This document shows, piece after piece, positions 4,881-26,275 of a stretch of 29,334 nucleotides of DNA; the stretch's first letter is position 1, and each line of letters starts with the position of its first letter. The notes under the pieces were generated by a model. The model saw only the letters and a list, made by a program, of their open reading frames with translations, made no database searches and had not been told where the DNA came from. The DNA is from an uncultured Deferribacteres bacterium (GTDB lineage: Bacteria > Zhuqueibacterota > Zhuqueibacteria > Zhuqueibacterales > Geothermadaptataceae), in assembly GCA_964014485.1 (NCBI GenBank), contig CAXHAT010000091.1:1-29334 (forward strand). Direction: 5' to 3'. Position numbers and translations under genes: made by a program.

Positions 4881-4890
4881 AGATCAGACA

Positions 4891-7876: not shown

Positions 7877-8118
7877 TTGACCTGTCCCAAATGCGACAGT
7901 GAAAGCTTGCAAAAATCGAGAACCTGAAGCGCTTGTTCGCGGGTTACGGTTGGAAAATTGTCAAGAAATTCATCCAACGTCAGACCGGCTTCGATATTAT
8001 TGAGCAAAGCGTCCACAGGCACGCGGGTTCCGCGAAAAACGGGAGTCCCGCTTACGATATCCGGATCAACCGTGACAGGGAGTTGCTCCGGCTCGATATT
8101 GTTTAGAACCAAAACCAT
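7873..8118 (-). CDS. DUF433-domain antitoxin
   Basis: DPDIVSGTPVFRGTRVPV...GLTLDEFLDNFPTVTREQA. GGAG RBS 8 nt upstream of ATG 8118. Confidence 0.88.
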   Translation of the reverse strand: MVLVLNNIEPEQLPVTVDPDIVSGTPVFRGTRVPVDALLNNIEAGLTLDEFLDNFPTVTREQALQVLDFCKLSLSHLGQVN

Positions 8119-8179
8119 GATCATCGCTCCAAAGTTGTGAAAGCGGTTTTCAAATTTCGATAACCTGCTGCCAAAACTC

Positions 8180-8208
8180 AAAGTAAAACAAGAATTCCGT
8201 TATGGCAA
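8180..8208 (-). promoter_or_regulatory. Sigma70-type promoter of the first DUF433/DUF5615 cassette
   Basis: TTGCCA (8208-8203) - 17 nt - TACTTT (8185-8180). Confidence 0.55.
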
Positions 8209-8229: not shown

Positions 8230-11200
8230 TCAAACTTTCGCAACGCTCCCTTTCTTACTGCTCTGTAACAACAAAACATAAGCGTCTTCCAGGGTCGGTT
8301 CGACGGCGCGGGGGGCGATTTCGGGGACTTCGGTTTCGCTGATGAAGCGCATCCGTACTTCGTTTTCCACTTTGCTGTGTTGGACGATGTTGAGCTTATG
8401 CCGCCAATTCGGGAAATCCGCTTCCGGCACTTTTGCTTCGAAAACCTTGCCTTGCGCGCGTTTTTGCATTGACTCCGGCGAACCGCGATAGATGACTTGA
8501 CCGCCGTTGAGCACTGCCAGATCGTTGCACGTGCTCGAAATGTCTTCCACCACGTGTGTGCTGAAAATGACGATGCGCTCTTTTGCCAATTCCGCCAGCA
8601 GGTTGCGGAAACGAATGCGTTCGCGCGGGTCGAGACCGGCGGTCGGCTCGTCCACGACGATGATTTGCGGCAAGTTCAGAAGAGTTTGCGCAATGCCGAC
8701 GCGCTGCTTCATGCCGCCGGAGAATGTTTTCACCTTGTCGTCCCGCCGTTCCCACAAACCGACGCTTTCGATGAGTTTATCGATCAATTCGCGCCGCGCA
8801 TCTTCTTCATAAATGCCGTTGATGATCGAATGATAATTCAAATATTCACGCGGGGTCATGTTTTCGTAGAGCCCGAAATCCTGCGGCAGGTAGCCAATCG
8901 CGCCGTGGAACAGTTCTCGGTGCTCGTTTAAATCGCGCCCGTTAATTTTTATGCTGCCGCGATCCGCATCCAGCACGCCGACGATGGAACGCATGAGCGT
9001 CGTTTTTCCCGCGCCATTCGGGCCTAACAAGCCGAACATGCCTTGCCCGATCTCCAAATTAACGCCTTGCAAAGCCGTCACGGTCGGTTTCGGCGGGCGG
9101 ATGAGCGGAATCATCTTGACCAGCGCATAAATGCCGCGCTTGATTTTTTTCAAGCGACCTTCCGGCAATTCCGGGTTGATTTGGCCAGATTCAATGCGGC
9201 GTGACGTTCGTTTCAAAAGCGCAAAAATGATCGTAAAAACCAACATCGTGATCAAAAACGGCACGGACGAAGTTCGGACATAAAGGTATGCCAGCGCCGC
9301 CAAGCCGATCAAAAAACCGCCTCGTCGTACGAAATGAAGCGGATCCACCGTCTCGTCACGACGGTCTCCGTTGTGATCCCGCTTATTCGGGGGAAGCTCC
9401 GCAGCCTGTGGCGCTTGGACGAGGTTCATTTCTTCTGAATTCGCTTCATTGATGGGCTCCGCCTTCTTTTTGCCAAAAAATAAAAACCGTCGTTTTGCGC
9501 GCCGATTTTTCACTTTTGGCTCTGCTTCCGATTTGCGTTTGAAAAACAAAAACCGCCGCTTTTTCTCACGAACTTTTTTAACGCGCGGCTTTGGCGGTTT
9601 GCCGAACATGAAGCGCCAACGGTAGTACAACTCACGTGCGGAAACGACCCAAACGACCGTGCCTATGGTCAGCCAAAAGAGCCAAAATCGACTTTCAAAG
9701 AAGAAATGCAGATAAATAAGCAACGCGCCGATCACCAATGTCCAGATCGTCTCATCCTGCAATTGCCGCTTTGTCCAGGGCAATTGATTTTCGAGATCAA
9801 GCGCGCCAAAACGCCGATCTTGCTTGTGCCACTCGCGCGCGAATCTTTTTGGCGCGCCATAAATTTTGGTAAGGTTTGAAATTCTGATTTGCAGGCTGCC
9901 TTTTAAAACAGCGGCTTTTTCGGCTCGCAGCGTAAAAAACTGTTTCACGCTATACCACAATCCCAGCACAATGAACCAGGTCGGCAGCGTGATAACCGAG
10001 GTCCACAGCCAGCTTTCAAAACGAATATGGAACGAATAAACAAGCCAACCAGAAACTGCCGTGCAGACCGCCAGACCGAGCCAGCCAATTTTCAGCAACC
10101 ATTCGCGCGTCTGCTCCAACGCGACGTAAAGCACGGGGATGAAAACAAGGGTGGAAAACGCCGAAACCGTCAGTCCGCCGAGCACGACAATGGCGAATGG
10201 CGGCCAGAGTTCGAACTCAGTGCCTTGTTTGAAAGCCAGCGGTAAAACACCGAGAATCGTCGTCGCCGAGGTCATCAAAATTGGACGGACGCGGTTTTGA
10301 GAGGCGACCATCACCGCACGCTGCCAGCGGAAGTTACGCCGGTTGCGCAAAATCGCGATGCGGTCGAGCAAAATTATGCCGTTGTTGACGACGATGCCAA
10401 GCAAAACGATAAGACCGAGCAACGCCATCGGCGCGCCTTCGCCGAGAGAAAGCGGCGTGCCGGTGAGCGTAAGCGCGAAAAGTGCGCCGATAATCGCGGT
10501 TGGGATTGTACCCAAAATTACGAACGGGCTGAACAACGATTCAAATTGCGCCGCCAGGAACATGAAGATCAAAATCAAGCCAATGGCGAGCATCCAGTAA
10601 TAGACCGTTTGTGTGTTTTCTTCTTCAATTTTTTCAAGCGTGAATCCGCGCGGCATGCGAATTTCGCTCATCAAAATTTCGATCTGTGTTTCGGCGGTTT
10701 CAACCCGTTGTTTTGACGTTTCCGCTTCCGAAGTAAATCGATAGCTGATTTTGACCTCGCGCGACTGGTTGTAGCGTACGATATTTCCCGGCCCCTCATC
10801 CCGCCGCACTGTTGCAACCTCGCGGATCGGCACGAGCTGCCCGGCGCTATTCATGACCTTCGTGTTTTCCAAATCCTGAACCGTACGTTCTTCTACATCT
10901 CGAAGCTGCATTTGGATATTCGTATCATCGCCGCCGCTATAGAAAGGCGTGGCGGCTTGAGCGCCTTCCGCGCGCGTGCCCCAGATTGCCGTCATGATTT
11001 GCTGCATGCTCAAGCCCCAAATCGCCAAGCGCAGCCTGTCGCCGCGAATTTGAATTTCCGGCGTGCCTTCGCGCAATTCCGAGCGTACGGAGCGCGGATC
11101 GACGTCTTCGATTGTTCGCAAAGTTTGAACGATTTGCGTGCTGAGCGTTCGCAAAACATTCACGTCATGGCCGCGCAGACGGAGCCCTTTTTCCGTGCTG

Positions 11201-13158
11201 AACAATCCCCCGGCATCTCCTCCCCCGCGTCCGCCCCCTCCGCCGCCGCGATTCGGAGGCTCGAACGACAATTCTACGCTGCGGTTTCGTCTTTGAATGT
11301 CATCGATTTTTTCTTTTACGGCTTCAATATTCAGTTGCTGCGTGCGCTTGTCCGGCTCAACAAAATTGACGGCAATGAAAGCTTCCTCAGTTTGCACGCG
11401 CGTACGCGCTTCTTTAATATCCGGGATTTGGTTGATTTCTTCCTCAAATCGGCGGGTAAGTTCGTCCGTGTAATCCAGGGTCGAGCCTTTGGCCATGGTG
11501 AGATAAACGTCAACGCGGTCGGGCGGCGGCGAGGATGATTGTTGCAAAATAAACGTCGCGCCGATCACCAGACTCAAGAGCAAAAAAACGGCTACGAGCG
11601 AGACCGTGCGAATACGGTGGCGCATGCAGGACTTGAGAAACAAACGGTAAATTTCGAGAATACGACCAGCTTCAAACTGCCGAAAAGATTGCGCGCCCAG
11701 AGTCAGGCTTGCAAGCAAGGGCACAATCGTGAGCGCAACAAACAGCGAAGCAAGTAGCGGAAAAATGACGGCGAGGGCCAATTCGCGCACAAACAACTGT
11801 GCGTCGCTTTGTACGAACAGAACTGGCAGGAAAACTAAAATCGTCGTGCCGGTGGAGGCGAAAATTGAGCGGCTGACTTCGACCGTACCGTCGAGCGTCG
11901 CTTCGCGAACTGATTTTCCGCGCTGGTAGTGTGTGAAAATGTTCTCCATCACGACAATGCCGTTATCCACGAGCATGCCGATGGCCAACGCCAGCCCGCA
12001 GAGAGAGACAATGTTGATGGAAAGATTCCATGCGTACATAAAGTTGGCGGTGATGAGCAGGCTGACCGGAATCGCGATCATCAGAATCGTGACGAACCGA
12101 AAATTTTTGAGAAAAAGAAACAACACAATAAGCGCTAGAAACGCGCCGGTCACTGCCAGCGATTTTACCCGATCAATGGCGTCGGAAATGAGCTGCGCTT
12201 GGCTGATGTTAACGACCAATTCCAGATCCTCACGCGCCAATTCTTCGTTGAGTGCGTCGATCTGCTCCTGCGCCGCGTTGGCGACCTTGATCATGTTGCT
12301 CTGGTTGTCTTTCTGGATGAAAATGCCAACGCTCGATTTGCCGTTGATGCGGAAATATTCGGTCTTTTCTTCCTCGCCGTAACCGACTTTGGCTACGTCC
12401 GAGAGACGAATCGGGCCATTCGCATCAACAACCAAATCCGCTAACGTACGAATATCATCAACGCGCCCAATCAGGTTCACGTCGAGAATGCGTCCGGCGG
12501 TGATGACTTGCCCCAAATGTTCCGGCTGGCGATGAAACTGGTTGACAACCTGCTGAACGCGCGTGACGGGAATCCCCATCGCTTCGCACTTGTCTTCATC
12601 AATCTCCACGCCAATGTTTTGCCGCTCGCCGCCGCCGACATTGACGTTCACAATGCCGTCGACTTGTTCCAAGCGCAGCTTCACGCGGCGCTCCGCTATC
12701 TCCCTCAGGTCATTCAAAGGCCGGTCGCCGCGAATGCTAATTTGCATGAGAAATGTGGAAAAATCACTAGTGTCGAAGCGGTTGACGGCGACGCGCGAGT
12801 TCTGCGGCAATTGCGGCTCCAGAGCGGTCATCTTTTGCTGCAATTTCAGGATGGCGAATTTCATATCCACCCCGGGGTCGAAGGAAACCTTGGTGCTGAA
12901 AAAGCCGGGATTGACGGTCGTCTCCAAGTCCTTCACGCCTTCCAACGCCGCCAATTCCGCTTCCACGGGAATCGCCAATTGTCGCTCCACTTCCTCCGGC
13001 GCCGCGCCGTTCATCCCCGCGCTGACAAAAACTTCCGGAAAGATCAACTCCGGCAGCAATTGCACCGCCAGGCGATCCCAGGAAAAATACCCCAACATGC
13101 ACACGCCCGAGGCGAACATGAGCATCGTGACCGGTCTTTTTAGAGCAAGTTTTGTCAT
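8230..13158 (-). CDS. AcrB-family RND permease fused to extra TM helices and a C-terminal ABC ATPase domain
   Basis: Roughly aa 1-1015 form an RND (GMLVDNGIVVMEN, RVRPILMTSATTILGVLPLA, VLGGLTVS). The C-terminus carries GPNGAGKTT, GYLPQ, FSGGMKQR, VVDEPTAGLDP and STH. Single uninterrupted 1642-aa frame. Confidence 0.93.
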   Translation of the reverse strand: MTKLALKRPVTMLMFASGVCMLGYFSWDRLAVQLLPELIFPEVFVSAGMNGAAPEEVERQLAIPVEAELAALEGVKDLETTVNPGFFSTKVSFDPGVDMKFAILKLQQKMTALEPQLPQNSRVAVNRFDTSDFSTFLMQISIRGDRPLNDLREIAERRVKLRLEQVDGIVNVNVGGGERQNIGVEIDEDKCEAMGIPVTRVQQVVNQFHRQPEHLGQVITAGRILDVNLIGRVDDIRTLADLVVDANGPIRLSDVAKVGYGEEEKTEYFRINGKSSVGIFIQKDNQSNMIKVANAAQEQIDALNEELAREDLELVVNISQAQLISDAIDRVKSLAVTGAFLALIVLFLFLKNFRFVTILMIAIPVSLLITANFMYAWNLSINIVSLCGLALAIGMLVDNGIVVMENIFTHYQRGKSVREATLDGTVEVSRSIFASTGTTILVFLPVLFVQSDAQLFVRELALAVIFPLLASLFVALTIVPLLASLTLGAQSFRQFEAGRILEIYRLFLKSCMRHRIRTVSLVAVFLLLSLVIGATFILQQSSSPPPDRVDVYLTMAKGSTLDYTDELTRRFEEEINQIPDIKEARTRVQTEEAFIAVNFVEPDKRTQQLNIEAVKEKIDDIQRRNRSVELSFEPPNRGGGGGGRGGGDAGGLFSTEKGLRLRGHDVNVLRTLSTQIVQTLRTIEDVDPRSVRSELREGTPEIQIRGDRLRLAIWGLSMQQIMTAIWGTRAEGAQAATPFYSGGDDTNIQMQLRDVEERTVQDLENTKVMNSAGQLVPIREVATVRRDEGPGNIVRYNQSREVKISYRFTSEAETSKQRVETAETQIEILMSEIRMPRGFTLEKIEEENTQTVYYWMLAIGLILIFMFLAAQFESLFSPFVILGTIPTAIIGALFALTLTGTPLSLGEGAPMALLGLIVLLGIVVNNGIILLDRIAILRNRRNFRWQRAVMVASQNRVRPILMTSATTILGVLPLAFKQGTEFELWPPFAIVVLGGLTVSAFSTLVFIPVLYVALEQTREWLLKIGWLGLAVCTAVSGWLVYSFHIRFESWLWTSVITLPTWFIVLGLWYSVKQFFTLRAEKAAVLKGSLQIRISNLTKIYGAPKRFAREWHKQDRRFGALDLENQLPWTKRQLQDETIWTLVIGALLIYLHFFFESRFWLFWLTIGTVVWVVSARELYYRWRFMFGKPPKPRVKKVREKKRRFLFFKRKSEAEPKVKNRRAKRRFLFFGKKKAEPINEANSEEMNLVQAPQAAELPPNKRDHNGDRRDETVDPLHFVRRGGFLIGLAALAYLYVRTSSVPFLITMLVFTIIFALLKRTSRRIESGQINPELPEGRLKKIKRGIYALVKMIPLIRPPKPTVTALQGVNLEIGQGMFGLLGPNGAGKTTLMRSIVGVLDADRGSIKINGRDLNEHRELFHGAIGYLPQDFGLYENMTPREYLNYHSIINGIYEEDARRELIDKLIESVGLWERRDDKVKTFSGGMKQRVGIAQTLLNLPQIIVVDEPTAGLDPRERIRFRNLLAELAKERIVIFSTHVVEDISSTCNDLAVLNGGQVIYRGSPESMQKRAQGKVFEAKVPEADFPNWRHKLNIVQHSKVENEVRMRFISETEVPEIAPRAVEPTLEDAYVLLLQSSKKGSVAKV

Positions 13159-13169
13159 TTTCTCACCTT

Positions 13170-13220
13170 CTCGTCGCTACGGTCTCCGTCGCGACGCATA
13201 CTTGGACGCTCTGCATCCAA
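13170..13220. repeat. REP-like double-hairpin palindrome
   Basis: CGTCGCtACGG-TCT-CCGTcGCGACG, then CATAC, then TTGGAcGC-TCT-GCaTCCAA. Confidence 0.7.
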
Positions 13221-13228
13221 TCAAGCAT

Positions 13229-14068
13229 TTATTTTTCGAAATCTACCTTTCGCGTAGATTCATTGTCGCTCCAAAGTCCTTCAAATTGATTGCGATAGAA
13301 CAGAAAGTGCTCTTGCGAATTTCCCTTTGCTTCAAAGAAAAGAATACGTCGTTCGGTCTGGGGCGTTTTCAGGTAGACTGGAAATACCCCTAACGATATA
13401 ACGCCGCTGGGCTTGTGCCCATCGACCATGATCAGGCTATTCGGAGGGAGCCACTTTGTCACTTTCAATTCAAAGTTAATTTTACGTCCGGAGAATTTTT
13501 CTGTAAAATTAAAACAACGATTTATTGTTTTCTTGATATCGACAATAATTTCTTTATTTCTTGAGTTTTCATGGACTACTCTCGCGGCATCACTTTCGGG
13601 ATCAAGAATCAATAAACGGATATTGCAGCCTTCTTCGATTTTTTTGTACAGGAACCCATCGTAATAAGCAAACAAGTAACTGGCTGATAAAGCAAGAATA
13701 TCAATCGTCGATGCCTTTTTGGCAATTTCCGCGAGTTCCGGTCTGTCTTCGAATTTCAGCAGGATAGACGATTTCGATGCTCCATAAATTCTATGCGGCA
13801 GTTCTTCAAGCTGTCTTTTTGATTCTGTCAGATTGTCACTTATTTCCTGCAAGCTGGATTTCAGGCGCTCGCTCGTTCTTCGCGCTTCGATGAGACCGTA
13901 GATGAGAAGCGCTAACGCCGCAAGCACGATTTCAAAAAGCGCATCTTGACTAACGACACCGAACACATCCGCCACCAATACCGCAATGGCAACGGCCAGG
14001 ATCAGATATAATTCAATGCTCTTGCGGTTTTTGAAGTCGGTCTTTACATTACGAAAAAAGCTGCTCAA
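13229..14068 (-). CDS. 2TM + coiled-coil + DUF5919/PLD-like domain protein (start uncertain; ORF extends to 14134)
   Basis: Two hydrophobic helices, a heptad-like linker, then IDILALS...GCNIRLLILDPES...SLIMVD...YRNQFEGLW. No HxK motif. AT-rich relative to the flanks. Confidence 0.7.
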   Translation of the reverse strand: MSSFFRNVKTDFKNRKSIELYLILAVAIAVLVADVFGVVSQDALFEIVLAALALLIYGLIEARRTSERLKSSLQEISDNLTESKRQLEELPHRIYGASKSSILLKFEDRPELAEIAKKASTIDILALSASYLFAYYDGFLYKKIEEGCNIRLLILDPESDAARVVHENSRNKEIIVDIKKTINRCFNFTEKFSGRKINFELKVTKWLPPNSLIMVDGHKPSGVISLGVFPVYLKTPQTERRILFFEAKGNSQEHFLFYRNQFEGLWSDNESTRKVDFEK

Positions 14069-14127
14069 TGCTTTTTGCTCACAAATATAATTCAGTTTTC
14101 GTTGTATAAAGAGAAGGATTTTGAAAA

Positions 14128-14307
14128 ATGACAACCAAAGAAAAAATCCAGCAAGAACTCGACGAGCTTCCAGACGAGCTTCTCGAAAAGGTACACCAGT
14201 ATCTCACCGCTCTTAAAAAAAAGCCCGGTAAGCGTAAAAAAATTAAAACTTACAAGTTAGGCGGGCGATTCGACAATCTCGATATTCGCAGACAAGCTTA
14301 TGAATAA
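14128..14307 (+). CDS. Small antitoxin (DUF2281/VapB-like), missed by the ORF track
   Basis: MTTKEKIQQELDELPDELLEKVHQYLTALKKKPGKRKKIKTYKLGGRFDNLDIRRQAYE* (59 aa). AAGGA RBS; overlaps the PIN gene start. Confidence 0.8.
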   Translation: MTTKEKIQQELDELPDELLEKVHQYLTALKKKPGKRKKIKTYKLGGRFDNLDIRRQAYE

Positions 14308-14707
14308 TGTACTCATCGACACAAACGTTCTCGTTTACAGCACCGATGAAGATTCACGCTTCCATGAAGAAGCACAAAACATTCTGTTCGAATCAGATTT
14401 CGAACTCATAACGACAATCAAAAACATTTCAGAATTTCTTGCTGTTGTGACCAAGGGAAAAGCCCCTGCGTTGTCAGTCAATGATGCACTTTCGATTGTA
14501 ACCGAGTTTCAAAACCAGATGATCATTCTCTACCCGGATGCTGATTCTTTCGCTCAATTCCAGCAACTGCTGCGCAAATACAAGCCTAGAGGCTTGAAAG
14601 TTCATGACTTTGAAATTGCGGCGATTGCATTGGCGAACGGGATAGACAAAATTTCGACTTTTAACAAAAAAGACTTCACCAATATTGAAGAGATCATTTT
14701 GGTTTGA
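14300..14707 (+). CDS. vapC: PIN-domain (VapC-family) toxin
   Basis: VLIDTNVLVY...SEFLAVVT...HDFEIAAIALANG...TFNKKDF. Confidence 0.9.
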   Translation: MNNVLIDTNVLVYSTDEDSRFHEEAQNILFESDFELITTIKNISEFLAVVTKGKAPALSVNDALSIVTEFQNQMIILYPDADSFAQFQQLLRKYKPRGLKVHDFEIAAIALANGIDKISTFNKKDFTNIEEIILV

Positions 14708-14806
14708 ATTAAAGCCCGTTTTGTAACAACGGAAACTGTCATCACGAGACGGGAAAAAGCCGTGTTTCACCATCAAACGCTGACCAGATAATTCTTATCC
14801 CCTGAC

Positions 14807-15151
14807 TTAATCTTCTACTATCTCTCCGAGTCGATCAACCAATGCATTCAGGTCATTCTCAACAACTGACCAGACGATTTGATAATCGACGCCAAAATAG
14901 TCGTGTACAAGTCTGTTTCGAAAGCCTCGAATTCTCCTCCATTCGATCTCTGAGTGTTCGATTCTAAAATCAGGATCGATGCGGTTGGCTGCCTCGCCAA
15001 TTATTTCGAAATTTCTGATGACAGCGTCGACAGTTTTATCATCTGCGATAAACGATTCATAATCGAAACCTTCGGTGTAGCGTTGGATCTTCCTGGCTGA
15101 ATCCAGCATATCCCCCAAGAGCAAAAAGTCATCTCTTCTTCTCTCAGACAT
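14807..15151 (-). CDS. HEPN (DUF86/HepT-like) ribonuclease toxin
   Basis: DAVIRNFEIIGEAA and the RX4HXY motif RNRLVHDY. Start overlaps the MNT stop. Confidence 0.92.
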   Translation of the reverse strand: MSERRRDDFLLLGDMLDSARKIQRYTEGFDYESFIADDKTVDAVIRNFEIIGEAANRIDPDFRIEHSEIEWRRIRGFRNRLVHDYFGVDYQIVWSVVENDLNALVDRLGEIVED

Positions 15152-15434
15152 AGACGAGTTCCGGTTCGACGACCTCAAAATACTTGTCTTTTATTCCATT
15201 TCTCGAAACGAGGTCGACTTTCATCCTCATCAGTTCTTCCAACTCATCAGCAAGATCGATAAATCGAATACCGATATTGTCCGAAAATTCGACGAGCAAG
15301 TCCAGATCGCTGTCAGCGTCCTGTTCATCTCGAGCGAATGAGCCAAAAACCGCGAGTGATTTTATTGGATAATTCTTGAAAAGATGTGATTTGTGCCGTT
15401 TAAGCTCGAAGGTAATTTCAGCTAAATTGTTCAT
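15144..15434 (-). CDS. Minimal nucleotidyltransferase (MntA-like) antitoxin
   Basis: FGSFARDEQDADSDLDLLVEF (GSX10DXD) and KVDLV. Confidence 0.92.
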   Translation of the reverse strand: MNNLAEITFELKRHKSHLFKNYPIKSLAVFGSFARDEQDADSDLDLLVEFSDNIGIRFIDLADELEELMRMKVDLVSRNGIKDKYFEVVEPELVYV

Positions 15435-15478
15435 AACTATGACCAAACTAAATTGATTGTTAAAGAAGGATTCGAAAT

Positions 15479-18400: not shown

Positions 18401-18586
18401 ACGCTGCTCCATTTCTTGCGGGGCTCGGTCGCCGGACTGTAATTCGACCACAATGCGCGGGTTGTAAATCGAAGGCAGCAGATCCGTGCCGAGCTTGTCG
18501 AAAGAAATGTACCCGAGAATTGCAATGGCCGCCATAATCATCGCAATAGTAACGGGATATTTGACGGAAAATTTGGGGAGATTCAT
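15479..18586 (-). CDS. AcrB/AcrD/AcrF-family RND permease
   Basis: 1035 aa with GMLVDNAIVVIEN, RRLRPILMTSATTILALLPL and PMAIAVIGGL. Confidence 0.95.
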   Translation of the reverse strand: MNLPKFSVKYPVTIAMIMAAIAILGYISFDKLGTDLLPSIYNPRIVVELQSGDRAPQEMEQRFARQLEGELGTVSRVVDVRSVCSPGRVLTTVTFSWGADMDFALLDVQKKVAGFESDPDVDRVLTARYDPQEEPIAIYALQSDRDRDLDEMRRIAENVLKRSLERLDGVARVEVYGGFKREVRVELDEYLLNAFNLTPATINTQIQQSNADASGGNLVQDNTSFLIKGVGKYQDIDEVASTVVGYQDKATNGDTSSVGAQQAGGQFTPEKVPIYLRDVSKISYAPEERTEVVRFNGRESVGLYVYKEAQDNTVRVAGQLAEAVGGMESELGGVQFVTIYNQADFIDSAIGEVKTTAVIGVILAVLVLYVFLRNIGVTVIISLAIPISIMATFSLMFFQEYTLNVMTLGGLALGAGMLVDNAIVVIENIFRRRQSGEEAGEAAIKGTSEVGVAIVASTLTTIIVFLPIVYVQGVAAELFKEQAWVVAFSLLSSLLVAFLLIPPLASRVFAKKTTALEKQHLNIQVYNKFLNWAVNHPKTVVIAAILMLGSAAFLLPVVGNEFVPRSAENQVQLDLTLPPGTPLEKSSDVLAEVEYQIGQIIGEALENQFATVNVSSSQDLFTSSASNSESRARVTINLRSGEQGLPPSDAIRLLRPGLDLPGMEVSFRIRETSLQATIGTGGPPVIVEIKGDDFTILQQLSERIAESLEPINGLNTIETSFEIGRPEINLKVDRLLAASFGLDVEQIGAKVRDRLAGNVVSSFYTEGDDRNIRVAFPKATMMELENLVIASPDGAILRLRDLVRLEKDEGPKEIQRHNQSRVTHVTAQLDKDVKLSSVISSIEPRLTQVPLPSGYEVSFGGEEAERQESFDQLKFALLLSIVLVYMVLASLFESFLHPFTILLTLPLAGVGVVYAFLIVGEPLSIMAYIGVIMLAGIAANDSIVLVDYITRLRAQGIARKEAVIQAAKRRLRPILMTSATTILALLPLTIGLGEGARLRAPMAIAVIGGLVTSTLLTLIVIPTVYDLIDRLRRNP

Positions 18587-18623
18587 ATGGTCTTGGGTTT
18601 ATTCTCGTGAAATCGGGAAGTCG

Positions 18624-18703
18624 AGTGATCAGTCATAAGTAAATAGTAATTAGTGGGCTATAGACTGATTACTATTTACTAATCACTCATTACTGATCAC
18701 TGT
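18624..18703. repeat. Inverted array of 7-bp repeats forming a long hairpin between the MFP and RND genes
   Basis: + strand: (g)AGTgat cAGTcat aAGTaaa tAGTaat tAGTggg ... ACTgatt ACTattt ACTaatc ACTcatt ACTgatc ACTg. AGTGATCAGT/ACTGATCACT and AGTAAATAGTAAT/ATTACTATTTACT pair perfectly. Confidence 0.85.
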
Positions 18704-19758
18704 CTCGCCACTCTAACTTTCGACTGATCTCGCAGCGTCTCGTGGCCTTTTGTCACCACTTGGTCGCCTTCTTTAATGCCGCCGGAAATCTCCACGTCTT
18801 CCCTAGTCTCGATGCCTGTGCTGACTTCGCGTTCGTGGGCGACGTTGCCTTCGACGACAAAAACCGTCGGGCGGTTGTTGCGCGTCAAAATCGCTTCTTT
18901 GGGGATAACGATGGCCGTGTCGTTGCTCGCCACGACGATGTCCGTTTTGACGAACATGCCCGGACGCAATTTCAAATCTTTGTTTCCAATCTCCACGGTC
19001 ACTTTGAAAGTGCGAGTGCGCTGATCGATGGTCGGATCGATGGCCGTGACAAGACCTTTGAAAATCTCATCTTCGAGCGCATAGTTGCTCACCAACACGG
19101 AATCGCCGACGTCCACGCGGCCAAGGTCCGTGTTCGGCAAATTGACGTCAACAAGGGTTGTCCTGTAGTCCAAAATGTTGCACAACACAAATCCGGTGCG
19201 AACGCGCGTGCCGTCGGCGTTTTTTTGTAAATTGGCGATCATGCCGGAGATAGGCGCTCGAAGATTGAGTTTTTCGGCTTGAATAAGTTTCGATTCATAG
19301 TCCATTCTGGTTCTCAACTCTTCTTGTCGAGCTTGTTCTAATTCTTTCTCTGTAACCCCGCCTTCTTTGAATAATTCTTCCTGTTTATCTAATTCCCGTT
19401 TAGCATTCTCTTTTGCCAACTTGTTGTATTCAACGCGTACCGTGAGCAAGTACTCGGGATTTTCGAGCTTCGCCAATTGATAACCTTTTGTCACTGGGCG
19501 ATTGGTCGAAAGATCTACGCCGTTGGATTTAGCCAGATGCAGCAGTCCGTCTACCTCAGTCACAACTTGCTCTTCTCGGCTGGCGCGCAGGGTGCCGGTC
19601 GTTGAAATATACTCGGCGATGGGGCGGCGATTGACTTTTTCAACAGAGACGGGAAAAGTCAAGTCCGCGGCGCTCTGCTCATTGTTATCGGAGCAACTAG
19701 CCAACAACACGCCGAGCATGAGAATGATGGAAACGCGAATGATTTGTCGTAAGAACAT
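18697..19758 (-). CDS. RND periplasmic adaptor (membrane fusion protein), lipoprotein
   Basis: Lipobox LLASC; LRAPISG, LRPGMFV, IPKEAI and GDQVVTKG. Confidence 0.93.
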   Translation of the reverse strand: MFLRQIIRVSIILMLGVLLASCSDNNEQSAADLTFPVSVEKVNRRPIAEYISTTGTLRASREEQVVTEVDGLLHLAKSNGVDLSTNRPVTKGYQLAKLENPEYLLTVRVEYNKLAKENAKRELDKQEELFKEGGVTEKELEQARQEELRTRMDYESKLIQAEKLNLRAPISGMIANLQKNADGTRVRTGFVLCNILDYRTTLVDVNLPNTDLGRVDVGDSVLVSNYALEDEIFKGLVTAIDPTIDQRTRTFKVTVEIGNKDLKLRPGMFVKTDIVVASNDTAIVIPKEAILTRNNRPTVFVVEGNVAHEREVSTGIETREDVEISGGIKEGDQVVTKGHETLRDQSKVRVARQ

Positions 19759-19846
19759 GACGGGCCTTTTTTTCAGTAAACTCAAATTAAACCAAGTACT
19801 CTATCATCAACCACAGCGGGACACGACTCCCCCAAAAATCAAGTTT

Positions 19847-21349
19847 TTACTCGTCCGGAACCTCAACCACGACGGGCGCGCTACGCTCAAAATCCCACAA
19901 AGTCTTGCGGCGCAAATCCGCCAGGGTGCGTTTATAATCGATAACCGACGCAAGATAATTTGTCCGTGATTGCGTCAGACGCGTTTGCTCAAGTGCCAAA
20001 TCCTGACTGCTAATATCGCCGTTTTCAAAGCGCAGCAGACTGATACGGTAGCTCTTTTCCGCCAATTCCTGGCTGCGTTTGTTAATTTCAACGCGTGTCT
20101 GCGCCGAAGCCAAATTGCGCACCGCTGTGCGAATTTCCTCGGTGATTAAATTGACGCGATTCTGTTTGGTGAGAATGCTGCTTTCCAAATTCGCCTTGGC
20201 CGACTGCACCTCGGCAGCGTTTCGCCCCCAATCCCAAAGCGGAATGGAAAGCGAAACACGGACGCTGCGATCATTGTCAAAATTTTGAAAAGCGTCGCTA
20301 AACCGTTCTTCCCGATTCGATAATCCGTAACTTAGAAAAATCTGGCCGCTGACTTCCCTATTTGTATCTGTTTCTTTTACACTTATCCTATCTAATTCAA
20401 CAGAGATTTCGTCTGAGCGCAATTCCGTTCGTCTATCCAGCGCTTCCCCGAGCGCTTTCTCCAAAGTCACTTCAACAGGTGTGTATTCCAAATCCGTCGT
20501 TGCCTCCACGATATCGGTAATCGACAGACCGATAAGATTTTTGAAGGCGTCTTCGCTCTGTAAAAGGTTTGCTTCACTTGTCGCTGCAGTATTTCGGGCA
20601 TTTGCAAGGTCAACTTCAAGGCGCAAAACCTCAACTTCCGGTAACAGGCCCGCTTGCTGTTTCAGATTTGCGATTCGATAAGCATTCTCGGATTGCGTGA
20701 CCTGCTCATTATCAATTTGAGCCTGTTGCTGTGCCTGGAAAAGAGAGTAAAAATTGGCCGTCACGTTGAAAACGAGATCGAGCTGGCTGCGCGTATATGT
20801 TTGCAATGTGCTTTCGAGGTTTAACTCGGCGCGTTTCAGTCCGGTTTTGAGACGGTTGAGCGTAAAAAGCGGCTGGCTGTATTGCACGCGGAAGTCAGGA
20901 CGAAACGAAATATCCGTTTGCTCAAATTCGCCGAACGTCCTAAAACGAAAACGGCTCATCGAGCTGACGAGTGAAAACGTACCATCAGTAAAGGAAACCG
21001 GTTGGTTGACGGAGACTTGCGCCGCAAAGTTAAGCGTTTCCTGGCGGTCGAAAGAAATGCCCCCGCCTTGAACATTTGTGGGGCGTTCAGACTGTTCAAA
21101 ATTTGGCAAGCTCAAAACATCGAATTGCGCATTGCTCTTGAAGCTCAGACGGGCCGCACGCAAACTCATCCGTGATGAGATCAGATTTTGCTCTAGTTGC
21201 TTGGCGTTATTGCTGCGCCCGAGCGCAATATCGATGCTCTGTTCAAGGGTTAAAACATGCCTGGTTTGCGCGGAAACAAGCGTAGAAAAAACCGCCAGGA
21301 ATGCAAGGCTGATAAACGGCCCGCAACAGGTCGTAAAACGAATTCTCAC
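19847..21349 (-). CDS. TolC-family outer membrane channel
   Basis: Signal peptide; LTLEQSIDIAL, SLSIPLWDWG, AEKSYRISLLRFENGDIS. GGAGG RBS before the GTG start. Confidence 0.92.
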   Translation of the reverse strand: MRIRFTTCCGPFISLAFLAVFSTLVSAQTRHVLTLEQSIDIALGRSNNAKQLEQNLISSRMSLRAARLSFKSNAQFDVLSLPNFEQSERPTNVQGGGISFDRQETLNFAAQVSVNQPVSFTDGTFSLVSSMSRFRFRTFGEFEQTDISFRPDFRVQYSQPLFTLNRLKTGLKRAELNLESTLQTYTRSQLDLVFNVTANFYSLFQAQQQAQIDNEQVTQSENAYRIANLKQQAGLLPEVEVLRLEVDLANARNTAATSEANLLQSEDAFKNLIGLSITDIVEATTDLEYTPVEVTLEKALGEALDRRTELRSDEISVELDRISVKETDTNREVSGQIFLSYGLSNREERFSDAFQNFDNDRSVRVSLSIPLWDWGRNAAEVQSAKANLESSILTKQNRVNLITEEIRTAVRNLASAQTRVEINKRSQELAEKSYRISLLRFENGDISSQDLALEQTRLTQSRTNYLASVIDYKRTLADLRRKTLWDFERSAPVVVEVPDE

Positions 21350-21390
21350 AAACTCTTCCTCCAGAAAACTTCAGTTTCGGTTCCGTCAGA

Positions 21391-24300
21391 TTATTGGACA
21401 TACTCCCAACGAATTGCGTCCGCAATCATCCATCCGTCACCTTCATCGGATAGTTCGACAAGGGCGGCTTCATCCTTTTCAAACTGAAATCTGCCAAGAT
21501 AAATCCACCCGTCGGCGGTCTCGATAAATTTCATTTCTACCGGCTGGCGACCTTTCGAAGTGACAATGTTTATCTTAAAAGATTTCGACAAATTACTCGC
21601 CCACCACCGGGTTCTCCGATCACTGGTGCTGACCGGCATGTGAAAACTGAGGTCATAAAAGCCGCTGCGGGGCGGCTTAACTTCCCAGTGCGCCGGAAAA
21701 TCACCTTCGCCGCCGCGTTTATACCGCCAGCCAAAATAATATTTTCCATACGCCCGCGGGCTCATATTTTCCCACCAGGATTTGCCTTTTTGCGCAGGCC
21801 GTAAATATTTGGACGTTTCACCGACAGGCAGAAAAAAGCCGTCATCACGATCATCGGCATAAAAAACGGTTGAATCAGAATTTGAGTTCACGGCGAAAAT
21901 AGTGTCCATTGCGACGCCCCGCTTCGTGCGCGTGGGAATGGTAAGCGCTTGACTGATGCTGCCGCGATTACGGGAAAAATCGGGCAGTACGCGGATTTGC
22001 CGCGGACTTTCCTTCACGACAAAATGCACTTCTTTCTCTTCGTAGCTGCCCAGGCGGATGTTTTTCTTGATTTTATCATTCTTCGTATCGCAAAAAACCT
22101 GAACAAATCCCGCTCCTTTCTCGCCGTTTTGCACGCGCGCTTTCACAAGGTAGGCAATTTGCATTTTGCCCGTGTCCAGCTTTTCCACCTCGGTGCTGGT
22201 AATGCGATAACCCGGAAAAGTCGTTTCCCTAAACCACTGCTCATAAAAGTCGCCGAGCGGCGCTTCCGAATGCCGGTTCATGATCGCAAAAAAATCTTCC
22301 GGCGTGACTTTTTTGTACTTGAAATTTGTCACGACTTCGTCTAACGCACGCCTGAAATTTTTCCCGTCATCGCCCATCGTTTTTTTGAGAATTTCAAACA
22401 CTGCGGAACCTTTGATATCCAAACGCCCGCGATAAAGGTTGCCGTCTTTTTCGGGCAGAAAATCTGAGAGCGGCGTTTCTTCAAGACTGACGAGAACCGA
22501 ATCATATTCCGTCCGATAATAGCGCCTGAACCGCCAATGAATCCAGTCTCCTTCGCCGGAGCGAAGCATTTCAAGCGTGCTCAAATTGACGTTCCAACGA
22601 TCCGGGTAAAATTTGTCTTTAAGTGATTTTTCAACATTCTCGAACAAATGCAGCTCGAGTGCTCGACCCAAGACGTGATCAGTGAGGTCAATCTGGTGAT
22701 GAAAGTAGTTTTTGGTCGGAGACGACATATTAAAGAACCAATTGTCGTTCCACTCGCTCCTCCCCCTCCCGATCGTGTAACGCAGGGCTTGCTCAACGAA
22801 CACGTCGCGCTTTAGCCTGGCGTCCGAATCATCGCGCCGACGGCGTTGTGCGCGCTTCTTTTTACGCTCGAGAAGTTTTTCAAAATAGCGCCCGGCGAGA
22901 TCGCGCTCATCAATCATGATGATTTGCGGCTGCTCAAACGGGCTCAGGTAGCCCGAACGCGTCAGGAAAATTTGCGTTTGCATCGGCGTTTCGACGTACG
23001 CCAATTTTGGGTAAGGGTAAGCCTGGCCCGTGGTATTCTCATAACCATCGAGAATCTCTTCAATAACTTGAAAACACGTGTCGGCAACGTCCGAAAAAAT
23101 ATCGAGGCCGCGCAAGTGGTTCTTGCGATAATAAAGCTCGAGCGTTGTTTGTTTAAAATTTCGCGCCAGCTTTGCGTATTCGCCGATATTGAGTGAAAAA
23201 GCGGGCAACGGCGTCTCAACTTCGAAAATCGCGGTTCGCGCGCCATTTGTCGTCGAGTCGGAGGCGCGAAAACCTTGCGTGATCGCGGTCAATTTTCTCG
23301 GCGTTTTAATTTCAAATCGCGCGGTGGCAAAATTCTTGGGTTTTGGCGAATTGAAGTCATAACCTCCCGCTGTTCCCGGCGCCGGATACCAACCGGCTTC
23401 AGCCGGCAACAAGGCAAAATCTTTGGTGAGGTACGCCCAAAATTCGCCAATATTCCAAGGGCCGTCCTTTTTGTCAATCAAGCCCTTTTCATCGGGTAAA
23501 AAATCAAGTGCAAAAGCGTCGGCGTCGATTGTCCCGGCATAGCTTAGACTAATTTTTGTTTTCTCTCCCGCTTCAAGCGGCGCATCTTTCAGATTGACTA
23601 ACAGGAGTTGATGCTCTTGTTTAAACGAAATTTCCGAACCGCCAACTTTTTCAACGTTTTGCACTTTCAAACCGCCGTTCAAGGCAAAAACGAGTGTGTC
23701 GAGCGGCGTCTGGCCTGGGTTCACAACACTCATTTCAAGCTCGACGGCCAAAGGCGCGCCTTGCCTCCCAAATGAAATCTTAAAATCGTAATGCTCGACA
23801 TCGGCCAACGGCGCATTGACCCAGTGATCCTGCGCATCTATCGCCGCGGACTTTTTGCTTTCAACAGTCTGGTGCTCACTGATAACATCGAAACAAATGT
23901 ATGCGGCGCCAGCGAGAAAAAGCACGGCAAACGCTTGCGACATTCTTTGGGATAAATTCGATTGTCTTAAACGAGGATAGAGAATGATGGAAAAAGCAAG
24001 GAGTGCAAAAGCCAACAGCGTATAAAACAGCCTTTGTTTGAGAATATGAGAAATATCGCCAAAGCCGACCAGATCGCTGGCGAAGAGCGGCAGCCAAAAC
24101 GTGCCGTAATCGAACATGCCAAGAAAATCCGCCTGGAAATAGAACAACACCCCGCCCCAGAATGCCAGCGAAAGCAAAATCGCGATGGATTGCACGCGAA
24201 ACAAGCTGACGAAGAAGAACATCAGCGAGGTCATGAATAAAATGGAAGGGATGGTCGCAATCGTATAATATTGCAGGGTGGGAACGAGATCGAAGCCTAA

Positions 24301-24732
24301 ATCAAGAATGAGCGCCTTGATGGTTCGCCCAATAAGCGCGATAAAAACCAGCGCAACATTGAGCACGAGAAGCGCGCTGACGACGCCAAAATATTTCCCA
24401 ATCACCCAATTCGCTGTTGTCATCGGGCGGGAAAGCATGACTTGATCGAGCCGCGCTTTTTCTTCGGCTTTGCGAAAGTCGCCGGCAACGAAAATGATCA
24501 GCAATGCCTGAGCGTAGCTAAAAAAGTAGATGACAAGGAACGATTCCGTGCCTTCTAGGAAGAATTCTCCCGGCGGCGTACCGTCAAAAAACGTTGCGAG
24601 CGTCGTCCCGGTCAAAATCATTAATGCCGCGAAAATTCCGGCTCCGCCTAATATCCAAAATTTTGGCATCCGGTACAGCATCCGCCGCTCGTAAGAGGCG
24701 ATGGTGAGAATGTACTTTAGAGCTTTTAGCAT
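21391..24732 (-). CDS. ABC-2-type permease fused to a degenerate M1 aminopeptidase-like domain and a C-terminal golvesin/xanthan-lyase-like beta domain
   Basis: N-terminal TMs with SRPMTTANWVIGKYFG. M1-like segments EHYD, GWYP, YPYPKLAYVETP, KGSAVFEILKKTMG and FYEQWF, with no HEXXH. C-terminal GWIYLGRFQF...VELSDEG...IADAIRW. Confidence 0.8.
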   Translation of the reverse strand: MLKALKYILTIASYERRMLYRMPKFWILGGAGIFAALMILTGTTLATFFDGTPPGEFFLEGTESFLVIYFFSYAQALLIIFVAGDFRKAEEKARLDQVMLSRPMTTANWVIGKYFGVVSALLVLNVALVFIALIGRTIKALILDLGFDLVPTLQYYTIATIPSILFMTSLMFFFVSLFRVQSIAILLSLAFWGGVLFYFQADFLGMFDYGTFWLPLFASDLVGFGDISHILKQRLFYTLLAFALLAFSIILYPRLRQSNLSQRMSQAFAVLFLAGAAYICFDVISEHQTVESKKSAAIDAQDHWVNAPLADVEHYDFKISFGRQGAPLAVELEMSVVNPGQTPLDTLVFALNGGLKVQNVEKVGGSEISFKQEHQLLLVNLKDAPLEAGEKTKISLSYAGTIDADAFALDFLPDEKGLIDKKDGPWNIGEFWAYLTKDFALLPAEAGWYPAPGTAGGYDFNSPKPKNFATARFEIKTPRKLTAITQGFRASDSTTNGARTAIFEVETPLPAFSLNIGEYAKLARNFKQTTLELYYRKNHLRGLDIFSDVADTCFQVIEEILDGYENTTGQAYPYPKLAYVETPMQTQIFLTRSGYLSPFEQPQIIMIDERDLAGRYFEKLLERKKKRAQRRRRDDSDARLKRDVFVEQALRYTIGRGRSEWNDNWFFNMSSPTKNYFHHQIDLTDHVLGRALELHLFENVEKSLKDKFYPDRWNVNLSTLEMLRSGEGDWIHWRFRRYYRTEYDSVLVSLEETPLSDFLPEKDGNLYRGRLDIKGSAVFEILKKTMGDDGKNFRRALDEVVTNFKYKKVTPEDFFAIMNRHSEAPLGDFYEQWFRETTFPGYRITSTEVEKLDTGKMQIAYLVKARVQNGEKGAGFVQVFCDTKNDKIKKNIRLGSYEEKEVHFVVKESPRQIRVLPDFSRNRGSISQALTIPTRTKRGVAMDTIFAVNSNSDSTVFYADDRDDGFFLPVGETSKYLRPAQKGKSWWENMSPRAYGKYYFGWRYKRGGEGDFPAHWEVKPPRSGFYDLSFHMPVSTSDRRTRWWASNLSKSFKINIVTSKGRQPVEMKFIETADGWIYLGRFQFEKDEAALVELSDEGDGWMIADAIRWEYVQ

Positions 24733-24744
24733 TTTAGCGCTGCG

Positions 24745-25653
24745 TCATTGGTTAGCCGCCAATTCTTCTTCATCTAGTTTCTCTCCCACAACAGATTCCA
24801 TAAAATACATGTATGCGTCTTCCAGGTTCGGTGCGGCGGGCTCAAATTGAAAATCACCGTCCGGTTCGCCCACGACGCGGAGCAAAAGCTTTTTACCGTC
24901 CGGGATCGTGGAAATCACCTGAACTCTTCGCGTAATCTTCGAAAAATCGCTTTCGTCAATGCGGACGTGCCAGACTTTGTCTTCCGCCTCATCAATAAGC
25001 TTATGCGGCGCGCCGTTAAAAACAACGCTGCCCTTGGCGATAACGGCCAAATCTTCACAAGTGCTCGAAATATCGCCGACAATGTGCGTGCTGAGAATGA
25101 TGATCTTATCGCGGCTGATGTCCGCCAGCAAATTCCGAAATCGGATGCGTTCTTCCGGATCGAGTCCTGTCGTCGGTTCGTCGACGATCAGCAGATCCGG
25201 CTCGCCAATCATCGCTTGCGCAATACCAAGCCTGCGCAGCATGCCGCCGGAGTAGGTTTTTGCTTTTCGGTCGCGAACTTGCGCCAGAGCAACGCTTTCA
25301 AGCGTTCTTAATACTGTCTCGCGGAGTTTTTTTCCTGAAAAGCCGTTGAGCTTCGCAATGTACGTTAAGAATTCAGCGCCGGTCAATTGCGGATAAACGC
25401 CAAAAAATTGCGGCAAATAACCAAGAGACGAACGAACGGCCTTGCGATGCTTCCGAATTTCCTTGCCGTTAAAATGAACGTCTCCGGAACTCGGTTCTTC
25501 AAGCGTCGCCAGGATTTTCATGAGGGTGCTTTTTCCTGCGCCGTTGGGTCCAAGAAGGCCAAACATTCCGGAATTTATGTTCAGGGTCAGGTCGTTCAGA
25601 GCACGAACGCCGCCGGGATAGACTTTAGAGAGAGCATGAATGTTGATTTCCAT
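24745..25653 (-). CDS. ABC transporter ATP-binding protein (ABC-2/CcmA-like)
   Basis: GPNGAGKST, GYLPQ, YSGGM, IVDEPTTGLDP, STH and PNLEDAY. Confidence 0.95.
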   Translation of the reverse strand: MEINIHALSKVYPGGVRALNDLTLNINSGMFGLLGPNGAGKSTLMKILATLEEPSSGDVHFNGKEIRKHRKAVRSSLGYLPQFFGVYPQLTGAEFLTYIAKLNGFSGKKLRETVLRTLESVALAQVRDRKAKTYSGGMLRRLGIAQAMIGEPDLLIVDEPTTGLDPEERIRFRNLLADISRDKIIILSTHIVGDISSTCEDLAVIAKGSVVFNGAPHKLIDEAEDKVWHVRIDESDFSKITRRVQVISTIPDGKKLLLRVVGEPDGDFQFEPAAPNLEDAYMYFMESVVGEKLDEEELAANQ

Positions 25654-25885: not shown

Positions 25886-26275
25886 ATGAAAAACGAAATT
25901 CAACTCAGCGATTTACAAACGGCGGTTATGCGCGTCATTTGGTCTTCCGGAGAAGCCACCGCCGCCAAAGTGCATCAGGAATTGCTTGAGGCGCGCGGCC
26001 TTGCTTTCACAACAGTGGCGACCACTTTGAAAAGAATGGAAAATCGCGGCTTGATCGATCATCGCACGGAAGGGAGACAATTTATTTACCGCCCATTAGT
26101 CAGCGAAAAAGACGTGCGCGTTTCGATGGTTTCCGGCCTGATCGACAGGCTGTTTAAGGGGGATTCCGCCGAGTTGGTTAATCACTTGATCACGGAAAAA
26201 CAGATCAACAACGATGACCTAGAAAAGGTCAAAGCCTTGATCGCTTCAGCGGAAAAACGGGAGAGCGGAAAATGA
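25886..26275 (+). CDS. BlaI/MecI/CopY-family transcriptional repressor
   Basis: LSDLQTAVMRVIW, LAFTTVATTLKRMENRG, GRQFIYRP and IDRLFKG. Confidence 0.93.
   Translation: MKNEIQLSDLQTAVMRVIWSSGEATAAKVHQELLEARGLAFTTVATTLKRMENRGLIDHRTEGRQFIYRPLVSEKDVRVSMVSGLIDRLFKGDSAELVNHLITEKQINNDDLEKVKALIASAEKRESGK

Follow-up and report, generated by a model that had tools for sequence, protein, structure and literature searches.

Proton-driven resistance-nodulation-division (RND) permeases and ATP-driven ATP-binding cassette (ABC) transporters are taught as alternative engines for tripartite efflux. A locus on contig CAXHAT010000091.1 of an uncultured Deferribacteres bacterium (assembly GCA_964014485.1; positions 1 to 29,334, a stretch of 29,334 nucleotides [nt] called the window below) raises the question of whether both can be parts of one machine. 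One gene of this locus, the fusion gene, encodes an RND permease and an ABC ATPase in a single polypeptide. Five further genes encode a free ABC ATPase, a large permease, an outer membrane factor (OMF) of the TolC family, a membrane fusion protein (MFP) adaptor, and a second RND permease (RND1). The original prediction, made from the DNA letters without database searches, had described these six genes as a hybrid envelope machine.

Profile searches bore out the predicted join. Residues 1 to 1014 of the fusion protein matched positions 1 to 1020 of the 1021 positions of the Pfam profile ACR_tran (E = 1.4e-189), and residues 1363 to 1507 matched ABC_tran (E = 5.4e-31). The motifs of the nucleotide-binding domain (NBD) are intact (Walker A K1385, Q1426, signature S1480-GGM, Walker B D1503/E1504, and H1535), and their positions are invariant in 71 aligned homologues; judged by its sequence, the fused NBD looks catalytic. 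A search with residues 1015 to 1642 (the C-terminal module, or C-module) yielded both PF00873 and PF00005 in all of the best 120 matches (120/120), most of which were 1524 to 1667 amino acids (aa) long. Sources among these were candidate division KSB1, Calditrichaeota, Latescibacteria, Gemmatimonadetes, Acidobacteriota, and Fidelibacterota. Among 41 related genomes, including the window's own, 18 had a match in an open frame of at least 1489 aa, and 3 more had it in two pieces or fragments. The fusion was also found in two Bacteroidales metagenome-assembled genomes (MAGs), one further MAG, and one MAG labelled Pseudomonadales. Ten matches from long contigs were traced and led to MAG names only (Gemmatimonadota and Latescibacterota), with no cultured fusion carrier identified. 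A scan of genome contigs with the C-module alignment gave at least 606 stretches, mostly ordinary ATPases, from which 80 loci were kept, 4 of them with the fusion; these figures are no census. In public annotation, homologues are called either "efflux RND transporter permease subunit" or "ATP-binding cassette domain-containing protein." The fusion is thus not unique to this assembly; it is a real, widely conserved gene, and the covalent join has been kept, with fixed partner genes, across several phyla of mostly uncultured bacteria.

All six export genes are located on the minus strand, with outer open reading frame (ORF) ends exactly at the coordinates given in the original prediction, and comprise the two RND paralogues, adaptor, channel, ATPase, and permease that it had named. 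The order ATPase, permease, OMF, MFP, RND1, fusion, co-oriented and on one contig, recurred in eight loci of relatives (L028 to L035), in which protein identities went down to 23 to 56%. Relatives G025, where 13 kb are inserted, and G001 had the same six-gene order, as did two Bacteroidota MAGs (L048 and L052, one labelled Sunxiuqinia sp.). Two loci from one genus (L036 and L037) had the fusion gene inverted and adjoining the ATPase gene. Genome G041 (L051/L143, on contig G041:C30) had the series MFP, ATPase, RND1, a permease-like protein of 922 aa, and a fusion of 1437 aa, and no OMF match was detected within the 20 kb fetched. The six genes thus co-occur elsewhere, both in the same order and reshuffled. 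The reshuffled orders together with the phylum-level spread argue, as far as gene neighborhoods can indicate, for a functional unit.

The fusion protein and its divided ATPase

The fused RND part and RND1 are both RND proteins, neither of which falls in a curated named subfamily. Against the NCBIfam multidrug RND model NF033617 (cut-off, 1250 bits), they scored 518 and 621 bits, respectively, and the NCBIfam models of MdtC and MdtB matched the fused part below their cut-offs. Its closest solved relatives were 8gjj_B and MdtB (9lyq_B), at E values of about 1e-72 (8.6e-73 for 9lyq_B). The proton-relay positions, which we take from AcrB numbering to be the Asp of transmembrane helix 4 (TM4), the Lys of TM10, and the Arg of TM11, correspond to D398, N925, and R958 of the fused part. 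The TM4 Asp and the TM11 Arg were each kept in 41/41 rows of the alignment, and both paralogues have D-N at TM4 (VDN in RND1) and R at TM11. At TM10, RND1 orthologues showed N-D in 11/12 cases, and the fused paralogue showed N-N in 29/29. Lost proton coupling in the fused part was considered on account of the latter and dropped: the combination DN...NN also occurs in stand-alone RND genes of the same genome on contigs C8 (two genes), C131, and C422, and DS/DP...NN occurs on C111. The periplasmic part of the fused subunit carries a glycine-rich insertion, PPNRGGGGGGRGGGDAGG, at residues about 640 to 660.

The last RND helix and Walker A are about 345 residues apart, and hydropathy indicated six hydrophobic segments in between (TM13 to TM18). 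TM14 and TM15 are separated by a motif, I.I.NLTKIYG.PGRF.REW, that was conserved in 20/20 diverse homologues aligned. An AlphaFold2 (AF2) model of the C-module (628 aa), built with 71 sequences, had a mean predicted local distance difference test score (pLDDT) of 88.6 and a predicted template modeling score (pTM) of 0.79; pLDDT fell below 50 only at model residues 200 to 251. TM13 and TM14 formed helices 12 to 33 and 36 to 72 (model numbering) with pLDDT above 90, followed by the motif as strand 77 to 86; in the 71 sequences, K84 of this strand never varies, and conservation of L82, T83, and Y86 reaches 90% or more. The closest fold match was TM_1403 (4yer_B; Z 28.8, root mean square deviation [rmsd] 3.4, 266 aligned, model residues 73 to 620), and NosF (7osf_B, 7o0y_C) and NBDs of ABCA were among the top Foldseek matches. 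Solved NBDs aligned from their residue 1 to 5 at model residue 72 to 77 in 48 of the 50 rows listed, and because of this structural alignment the motif is, according to the model, the first strand of the NBD. This strand (IRISNLTKIY, residues 1091 to 1100) stands about 260 residues and four helices ahead of Walker A. The domain is therefore not the single contiguous unit that ABC_tran describes but is split by about 260 residues that include four membrane helices, a topology that was not described in the literature found. Y1100, at least 90% conserved, presumably occupies the position of the adenine-stacking A-loop tyrosine, which the detached strand would then probably carry.

Within the insertion, the stretch between TM16 and TM17 is variable, basic, and partly repeated (two RRFLFF repeats). 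In G041, about 50 soluble residues take the place of the four-helix insert. Two relatives have natural splits at the variable stretch. In G001, a 1239-aa protein is encoded in the cluster (L040, G001:C1) and a 394-aa protein on another contig (L042, G001:C2); in G021 (L043, G021:C183), proteins of 1206 aa and 372 aa are encoded by adjacent genes. In these split forms, the first NBD strand and the NBD core are on different polypeptides. A Foldseek search of pdb with the C-module listed NBD matches only, and nothing usable came from searching the ESM Atlas with the linker. The C-module was not found standing alone: a search among shorter proteins returned 5 matches, 4 of which came from contigs of 1.3 to 3.1 kb and were seemingly cut off, while the fifth (P0194, 267 aa) starts inside the linker and covers only part of it. 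A second ABC-2 membrane domain formed by TM13 to TM18 was considered and is unsupported (hhalign probability below 1%).

The two ATPases of the cluster had been predicted to be close paralogues. They do share GMFGLLGPNGAGK and ERIRFRNLL and are mutual best matches in the genome (E = 2.9e-72; the next paralogue of the fused NBD had 1.8e-40), but their identity is 42%. For the free ATPase, drrA and GldA were the top NCBIfam matches, both below cut-off. An ATPase tree of 62 rows (quick method, with Shimodaira-Hasegawa-like approximate likelihood ratio test [SH-aLRT] values only; high-scoring segment pairs under 200 query residues left out) placed the fused NBDs, the cluster ATPases, the ATPases that accompany the double-domain permeases described below, and a fourth type in one clade (SH-aLRT 98), outside which 7 other ATPases of the genome were located. 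Cluster ATPases formed one group (SH-aLRT 96), and fused NBDs formed a separate one (19 rows at SH-aLRT 86, with one long-branched row unresolved). The identity and the separate tree groups therefore point to an old rather than a recent duplication, with the two ATPases as separate old lineages of one subfamily.

The permease was modeled by AF2 with a pLDDT of 84.0 and a pTM of 0.81, showing seven N-terminal helices and no NBD. Its residues 6 to 252 aligned with NosY (7o0y_D; VIA-align, Z 18.8, rmsd 3.2, 228 aligned), and other fold matches of this transmembrane domain (TMD) were the type-V proteins PmtCD, ABCG2, Wzm, and KpsM. Residues 310 to 982 aligned with tricorn factor F3 (1z1w_A; Z 24.7, rmsd 3.8, 451 aligned), with a second M1 aminopeptidase fold match in 6a8z_A (Z 24.4). 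Residues 953 to 1113 aligned with a β-sandwich of carbohydrate-binding type (6f2p_A; Z 16.2, rmsd 1.9, 131 aligned), and Golvesin_C was matched with E = 9.5e-11. Pfam matches to ABC2_membrane_5 and M1 remained below the Pfam cut-offs; here, the fold supports both assignments instead. HEXXH and GXMEN are absent from the permease of the window, and 0/40 aligned family members had either motif. In the models, the permease is thus a type-V ABC-2 TMD with a seventh helix, a periplasmic M1 fold without the zinc site, and a carbohydrate-binding-like end. The pseudo-peptidase of the original prediction agrees with this architecture, in which a peptidase fold has become a noncatalytic periplasmic domain.

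Relatives of the free ATPase occur in cultured bacteria, where the ATPase gene is followed by a gene for a protein of about 1200 aa. These stand-alone loci (L053 to L066) include Xanthomonas sp. Leaf148, Sphingobacterium suaedae, Telluribacter sp., and Aquimarina sp. By Pfam, two of the three stand-alone permeases scanned had two ABC-2 TMDs and M1, and the third had M1 only; hhalign related their ABC-2 domains to the TMD of the window permease with a probability of 96 to 98%. HEXXH-E was intact in 6/6 stand-alone permeases checked (L053, L055, L057, L063, L064, and L066), and no RND, MFP, or OMF genes were detected beside them in 11 loci with 10-kb flanks. Three relatives in which no fusion was found (G011, G016, and G036) had the double-domain permease type only. 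Because the double-domain type was never beside RND genes in the loci seen, the single-domain form with its dead peptidase is tied to the RND cluster, and the earlier remark that the cluster holds only one ABC-2 TMD gained weight. The stand-alone proteins themselves, with ABC-2 domains and an apparently active M1 domain, seem to be an unstudied family in cultured bacteria; a literature search found no paper on them.

How the ABC and RND parts may work together

Since the fusion is not unique and the six genes co-occur elsewhere, a physical link between the ABC and RND parts is the most economical explanation, and we consider it somewhat probable that the genes encode one composite envelope-export apparatus, in which a working NBD, anchored in the membrane, would connect the NosFY-like ABC-2 module with the RND/MFP/OMF pump and its two RND paralogues. 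A type-V ABC module is provided by the free ATPase and the NosY-like permease, with its dead M1 fold and carbohydrate-binding-like end. One probable lipoprotein adaptor, one TolC-type channel, and the two RND paralogues would form the conduit, RND1 and the fused RND part presumably assembling into a mixed trimer like the MdtB2C heterotrimer of MdtABC that is mentioned in a review (PMC8277102). The fused NBD, its motifs intact, is held at the membrane by the six extra helices of the second RND paralogue. As a working ATPase, it would need to dimerize with another NBD, that of a second fused copy or the free ATPase, and such pairing would physically tie the ABC-2/pseudo-peptidase module to the RND-MFP-OMF conduit. 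The dead peptidase domain may bind a substrate in the periplasm, or the ABC module may flip it, before it leaves through the RND-MFP-OMF duct. If the RND part is still driven by the proton motive force, the machine would use both ATP and this force. A peptide- or glycan-bearing envelope molecule is our guess for the substrate, made from the folds. For the peptide, protein, or glycan suggested earlier, what support there is likewise comes from the folds of the periplasmic domain.

We predicted the complex of the C-module (628 aa) with the permease membrane domain (residues 1 to 300). The pair scored 0.37 (runs 0.37, 0.41, and 0.36), and the best of 3 controls scored 0.00; runs agreed in at least 88% of contacts, and pLDDT of the partner was at least 71. 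The mark applied is reached by 116/157 solved complexes and 2/215 mismatched pairs, but passes at scores of 0.60 or less comprise only 18/157 solved complexes and both of the mismatches. The model thus lends weak support to docking of the C-module on the permease TMD, which is not implausible, and the pass could stem from how closely the pair resembles solved NBD-TMD complexes or from the paralogy of the fused NBD with the true partner. The tether of the original prediction, an ABC module attached to an RND-MFP-TolC conduit, therefore stands as the most economical reading, whereas its heterodimer of free and fused NBD stays a suggestion: both NBDs are fully canonical, and the one direct test, this docking, gave weak support.

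A more specific version, in which ATP-dependent movements and the proton-driven RND cycle are mechanically coupled and the substrate is handed from the ABC module to the duct, is offered as a tentative possibility. In the same tentative spirit, the split NBD on a mixed RND trimer may dock the NosY-like module while the dead peptidase captures the envelope molecule.

Several observations weigh against a composite apparatus. The free ATPase with a homodimer of the permease would suffice for a whole ABC transporter, ATPase/permease pairs of related type occur without RND genes, and ABC and RND parts could be separate machines in a shared operon. An RND trimer and an NBD dimer are mismatched in symmetry. 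G001, with its NBD core encoded on a separate contig, shows that tight covalent coupling can be dispensed with. In the window, 2.3 kb with an opposite-strand gene among its ORFs separate the fusion gene from its five partners. Many syntenic genomes are kin and not independent, and the counts overstate independence. No RNA run was listed among the public runs that hold parts of the window. TM13 to TM18 reached hhalign probabilities of 0.2 to 0.4% against three ABC-2 profiles (that of the permease and those of both stand-alone domains), with 95 to 98% for positive controls. Finally, the docking result is weak.

Four other explanations were weighed. In the first, two fusion protomers would pair their six extra helices and NBDs as a half-transporter dimer, a small exporter of its own that carries a substrate across or out of the inner membrane next to the RND pump, and the free ATPase and permease would be a separate, complete transporter. 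Six helices and one NBD are indeed the make-up of a half-transporter, the catalytic motifs of the fused NBD are all intact, and ATPase/permease pairs of the same subfamily exist alone. Nevertheless, we regard this arrangement as unlikely: TM13 to TM18 have no similarity to ABC-2 TMDs (probability below 1%), and the first NBD strand is placed between helices 14 and 15, for which we know of no precedent in an ABC half-transporter. Moreover, the G041 variant lacks the four-helix insert and keeps the same gene set, the module was not found alone (the shorter-protein search gave fragments only), and two fused protomers in a three-fold pump would make an awkward geometry.

In the second, it is the RND pump that the NBD would energize or gate; the result would be an ATP-driven or ATP-licensed transporter of the RND type, with the ABC-2 genes as mere neighbors. 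The covalent link to an RND subunit, conserved over several phyla, and the contrast at TM10 (N-N in all fused rows against N-D in nearly all RND1 rows) can be cited in its favor. However, the occurrence of DN...NN in ordinary stand-alone RND genes means that this is not a sign of lost proton coupling, the TM4 Asp and the TM11 Arg are kept in all rows, the NBD would still need a dimer partner, and the ABC-2 genes accompany the fusion even where gene order has changed; this explanation is quite improbable.

A slim chance is left to the third, a neutral tether by which the fusion only co-locates two independent pumps or fixes their amounts, with no hand-over between them. The natural split forms in G001 and G021 and the disordered linker middle of variable length fit such a tether. 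On the other hand, the detached strand and its flanking helices are strongly conserved and the architecture persists over phylum-level distances, and we therefore argue for selection on the join itself. The fourth, in which faulty assembly, a frameshift artefact, or a pseudogene accounts for the fusion, has a negligible probability despite a fragmented assembly (465 contigs), given a frame uninterrupted over 1642 codons, the same architecture in all of the best 120 matches from many sources, and independent public-run contig pieces that cover gene parts without differences.

If the parts of the composite apparatus do cooperate, it would be the first envelope conduit to be fed by both energy sources and would offer a natural system for studying ABC-RND coupling; ABC and RND pumps would then be parts of one engine and no longer alternatives. 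The split ATPase is a defined target for structural biologists, while the practical consequence today is modest.

Gene layout, insertions, and neighboring genes

Table 1. Export genes of the locus, segments of the fusion protein, and ORFs of the low-GC insertion (positions in the window)
Feature	Position	Strand	Description
Fusion gene	8230-13158	-	1642 aa; RND permease and ABC ATPase
Fusion, NBD core and C-terminal regulatory-like domain	8233-9081	-	Residues 1360-1642
Fusion, insertion inside NBD	9082-9855	-	Residues 1102-1359: TM15-TM16, disordered basic stretch, TM17-TM18, cytoplasmic helix
Fusion, detached first NBD strand	9856-9894	-	Residues 1089-1101, LQIRISNLTKIYG; contains Y1100
Fusion, TM13-TM14	9949-10092	-	Residues about 1023-1070; by hydropathy, conserved alignment, and AF2 helices
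Fusion, RND part	10117-13158	-	Residues 1-1014
Low-GC insertion between RND1 and fusion	13159-15478		2320 bases; GC 0.41-0.46, against 0.53 on either side
DUF5919 protein	13229-14134	-	Pfam; in low-GC insertion
PIN	14300-14707	+	Pfam; in low-GC insertion, strand opposite to cluster
HepT	14807-15178	-	Pfam; in low-GC insertion, paired with MNT
MNT nucleotidyltransferase	15144-15446	-	Pfam; in low-GC insertion
RND1 (RND permease paralogue 1)	15479-18586	-	1035 aa; ACR_tran E 8.5e-218, residues 5-1028
MFP adaptor	18697-19785	-	362 aa; TIGR01730 RND_mfp 195.7 bits (cut-off 94.9); HlyD_D23 E 1.4e-26
OMF, TolC family	19847-21349	-	500 aa; OEP E 8.8e-44, two stretches
Permease	21391-24732	-	1113 aa; NosY-like TMD, dead M1-like domain, Golvesin_C
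Free ABC ATPase	24745-25653	-	302 aa; DrrA/GldA-like NBD of ABC-2 type; ABC_tran E 4.8e-31

The N-terminus of the OMF is signal-peptide-like, and the MFP has a lipobox-like LLASC near its N-terminus, from which its sequence suggests a probable lipoprotein. Three DNA runs of one marine metagenome study contained parts of the window, as short contig pieces and with no joints. Such pieces bridged both edges of the low-GC insertion (record 6, 12049-13466; record 16, 15385-15642). In relatives, the RND1 and fusion genes share 4 nt (L040 and L045) or are 14 to 599 nt apart (six loci). In one genus, the junction holds a PNPOx-like gene (L033 and L034, with gaps of about 1.3 to 1.5 kb, and L035, with 599 nt), and in G025 it holds 13 kb of unrelated genes; this junction tolerates insertions. 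The single promoter that had been postulated for all six genes did not hold up in this genome, where it is doubtful because the insertion with its four ORFs splits the cluster. Scans for regulatory signals across the window were uninformative: they gave 26 sigma-70 promoter-like sites where 15.5 were expected, and terminator-like sites were as frequent as by chance.

The 3′ end of the fusion gene is present in three direct copies of 57 to 144 nt (8230-8373, 7355-7498, and 6486-6542; repeat families D1 and D2), spaced by 875 and 890, with 106 nt at 94% identity. Each gap between the copies holds a small DUF433-type cassette (DUF433 at 7873-8181 and 6894-7220), and a weak DUF5615/PIN-like match was located at 7550-7912. 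This looks like repeated insertion of a toxin-antitoxin-like cassette at the 3′ end of the fusion gene, each insertion restoring the end. Likewise, G022 (L044) has a duplicated 3′ fragment of the NBD and a MazF-like ORF, so labelled from its N-terminal sequence only, downstream of the fusion. A 31-nt direct repeat with 84% identity has one copy in the variable linker of the fusion (9346-9376) and another just upstream of its start codon (13164-13194); single contigs of run X1 were loose-ended at both sites (9355 and 13169).

Divergent from the cluster lie genes for a BlaI-type repressor (25886-26275), a membrane protease of BlaR1/M56 type (26272-27972), and a retropepsin-like aspartyl protease (28018-28965). 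These genes may constitute a local regulator. The BlaI/BlaR1-like pair was weighed as a conserved one but did not appear next to the cluster in the loci of relatives, where flanks of about 1 to 2 kb were covered. At the other end of the window, the listed ORFs for an XerC/D-type recombinase (3969-4880) and a biotin ligase (4600-5694) share 281 nt, and the true start of the biotin ligase is probably further downstream.

Comparison with known systems

A literature search, with subscription journals not covered, found no description of an RND-ABC fusion, nor did the available part of the tripartite-pump review PMC8277102 contain one. All parts are of known kinds, while their combination and the split NBD are undescribed in the literature found. 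Like MdtABC-TolC of Escherichia coli, the locus combines two neighboring genes for RND paralogues with a single adaptor gene and a channel of TolC type. To our knowledge, however, no Mdt subunit has an NBD or extra helices, and the mdt operon contains no ABC-2 genes. The paralogues of the locus have D-N at TM4 and N-N or N-D at TM10, compared to D-D and K in AcrB-type pumps. MacAB-TolC, DevBCA, and YbhGFSR resemble the locus in combining an ABC transporter that has a large periplasmic permease domain with an adaptor and an outer membrane channel; we know of no RND subunit in any of them. MacB has four helices and an N-terminal NBD (PMC8277102), whereas the permease described here has seven helices, a type-V fold, and no NBD.

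NosDFY is close to the locus in fold, NosY being the closest fold of the permease TMD and NosF among the closest folds of the fused NBD, and in both systems a type-V ABC module has a large periplasmic protein on its permease. The locus differs from NosDFY in that the permease itself carries the periplasmic part, with an M1 fold rather than the NosD fold, and in the attached RND, MFP, and OMF genes; no NosD, NosL, or other nos genes were among the Pfam matches of the window ORFs scanned. The stand-alone ABC-2 and M1 systems share with the locus the ATPase subfamily (SH-aLRT 98), a homologous TMD, and an M1 domain after the TMD, but they have two ABC-2 TMDs per chain, an intact HEXXH-E, and no RND, MFP, or OMF genes beside them. 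The divided ATPase itself finds a parallel in NBD1 of CFTR, in which a regulatory insertion of about 30 soluble residues between the first two NBD strands indicates that this loop tolerates extra sequence. Compared to CFTR, the insertion in the fusion protein of the window is far larger, comprising about 260 residues with four membrane helices, and that of G041 comprises about 50 soluble residues.

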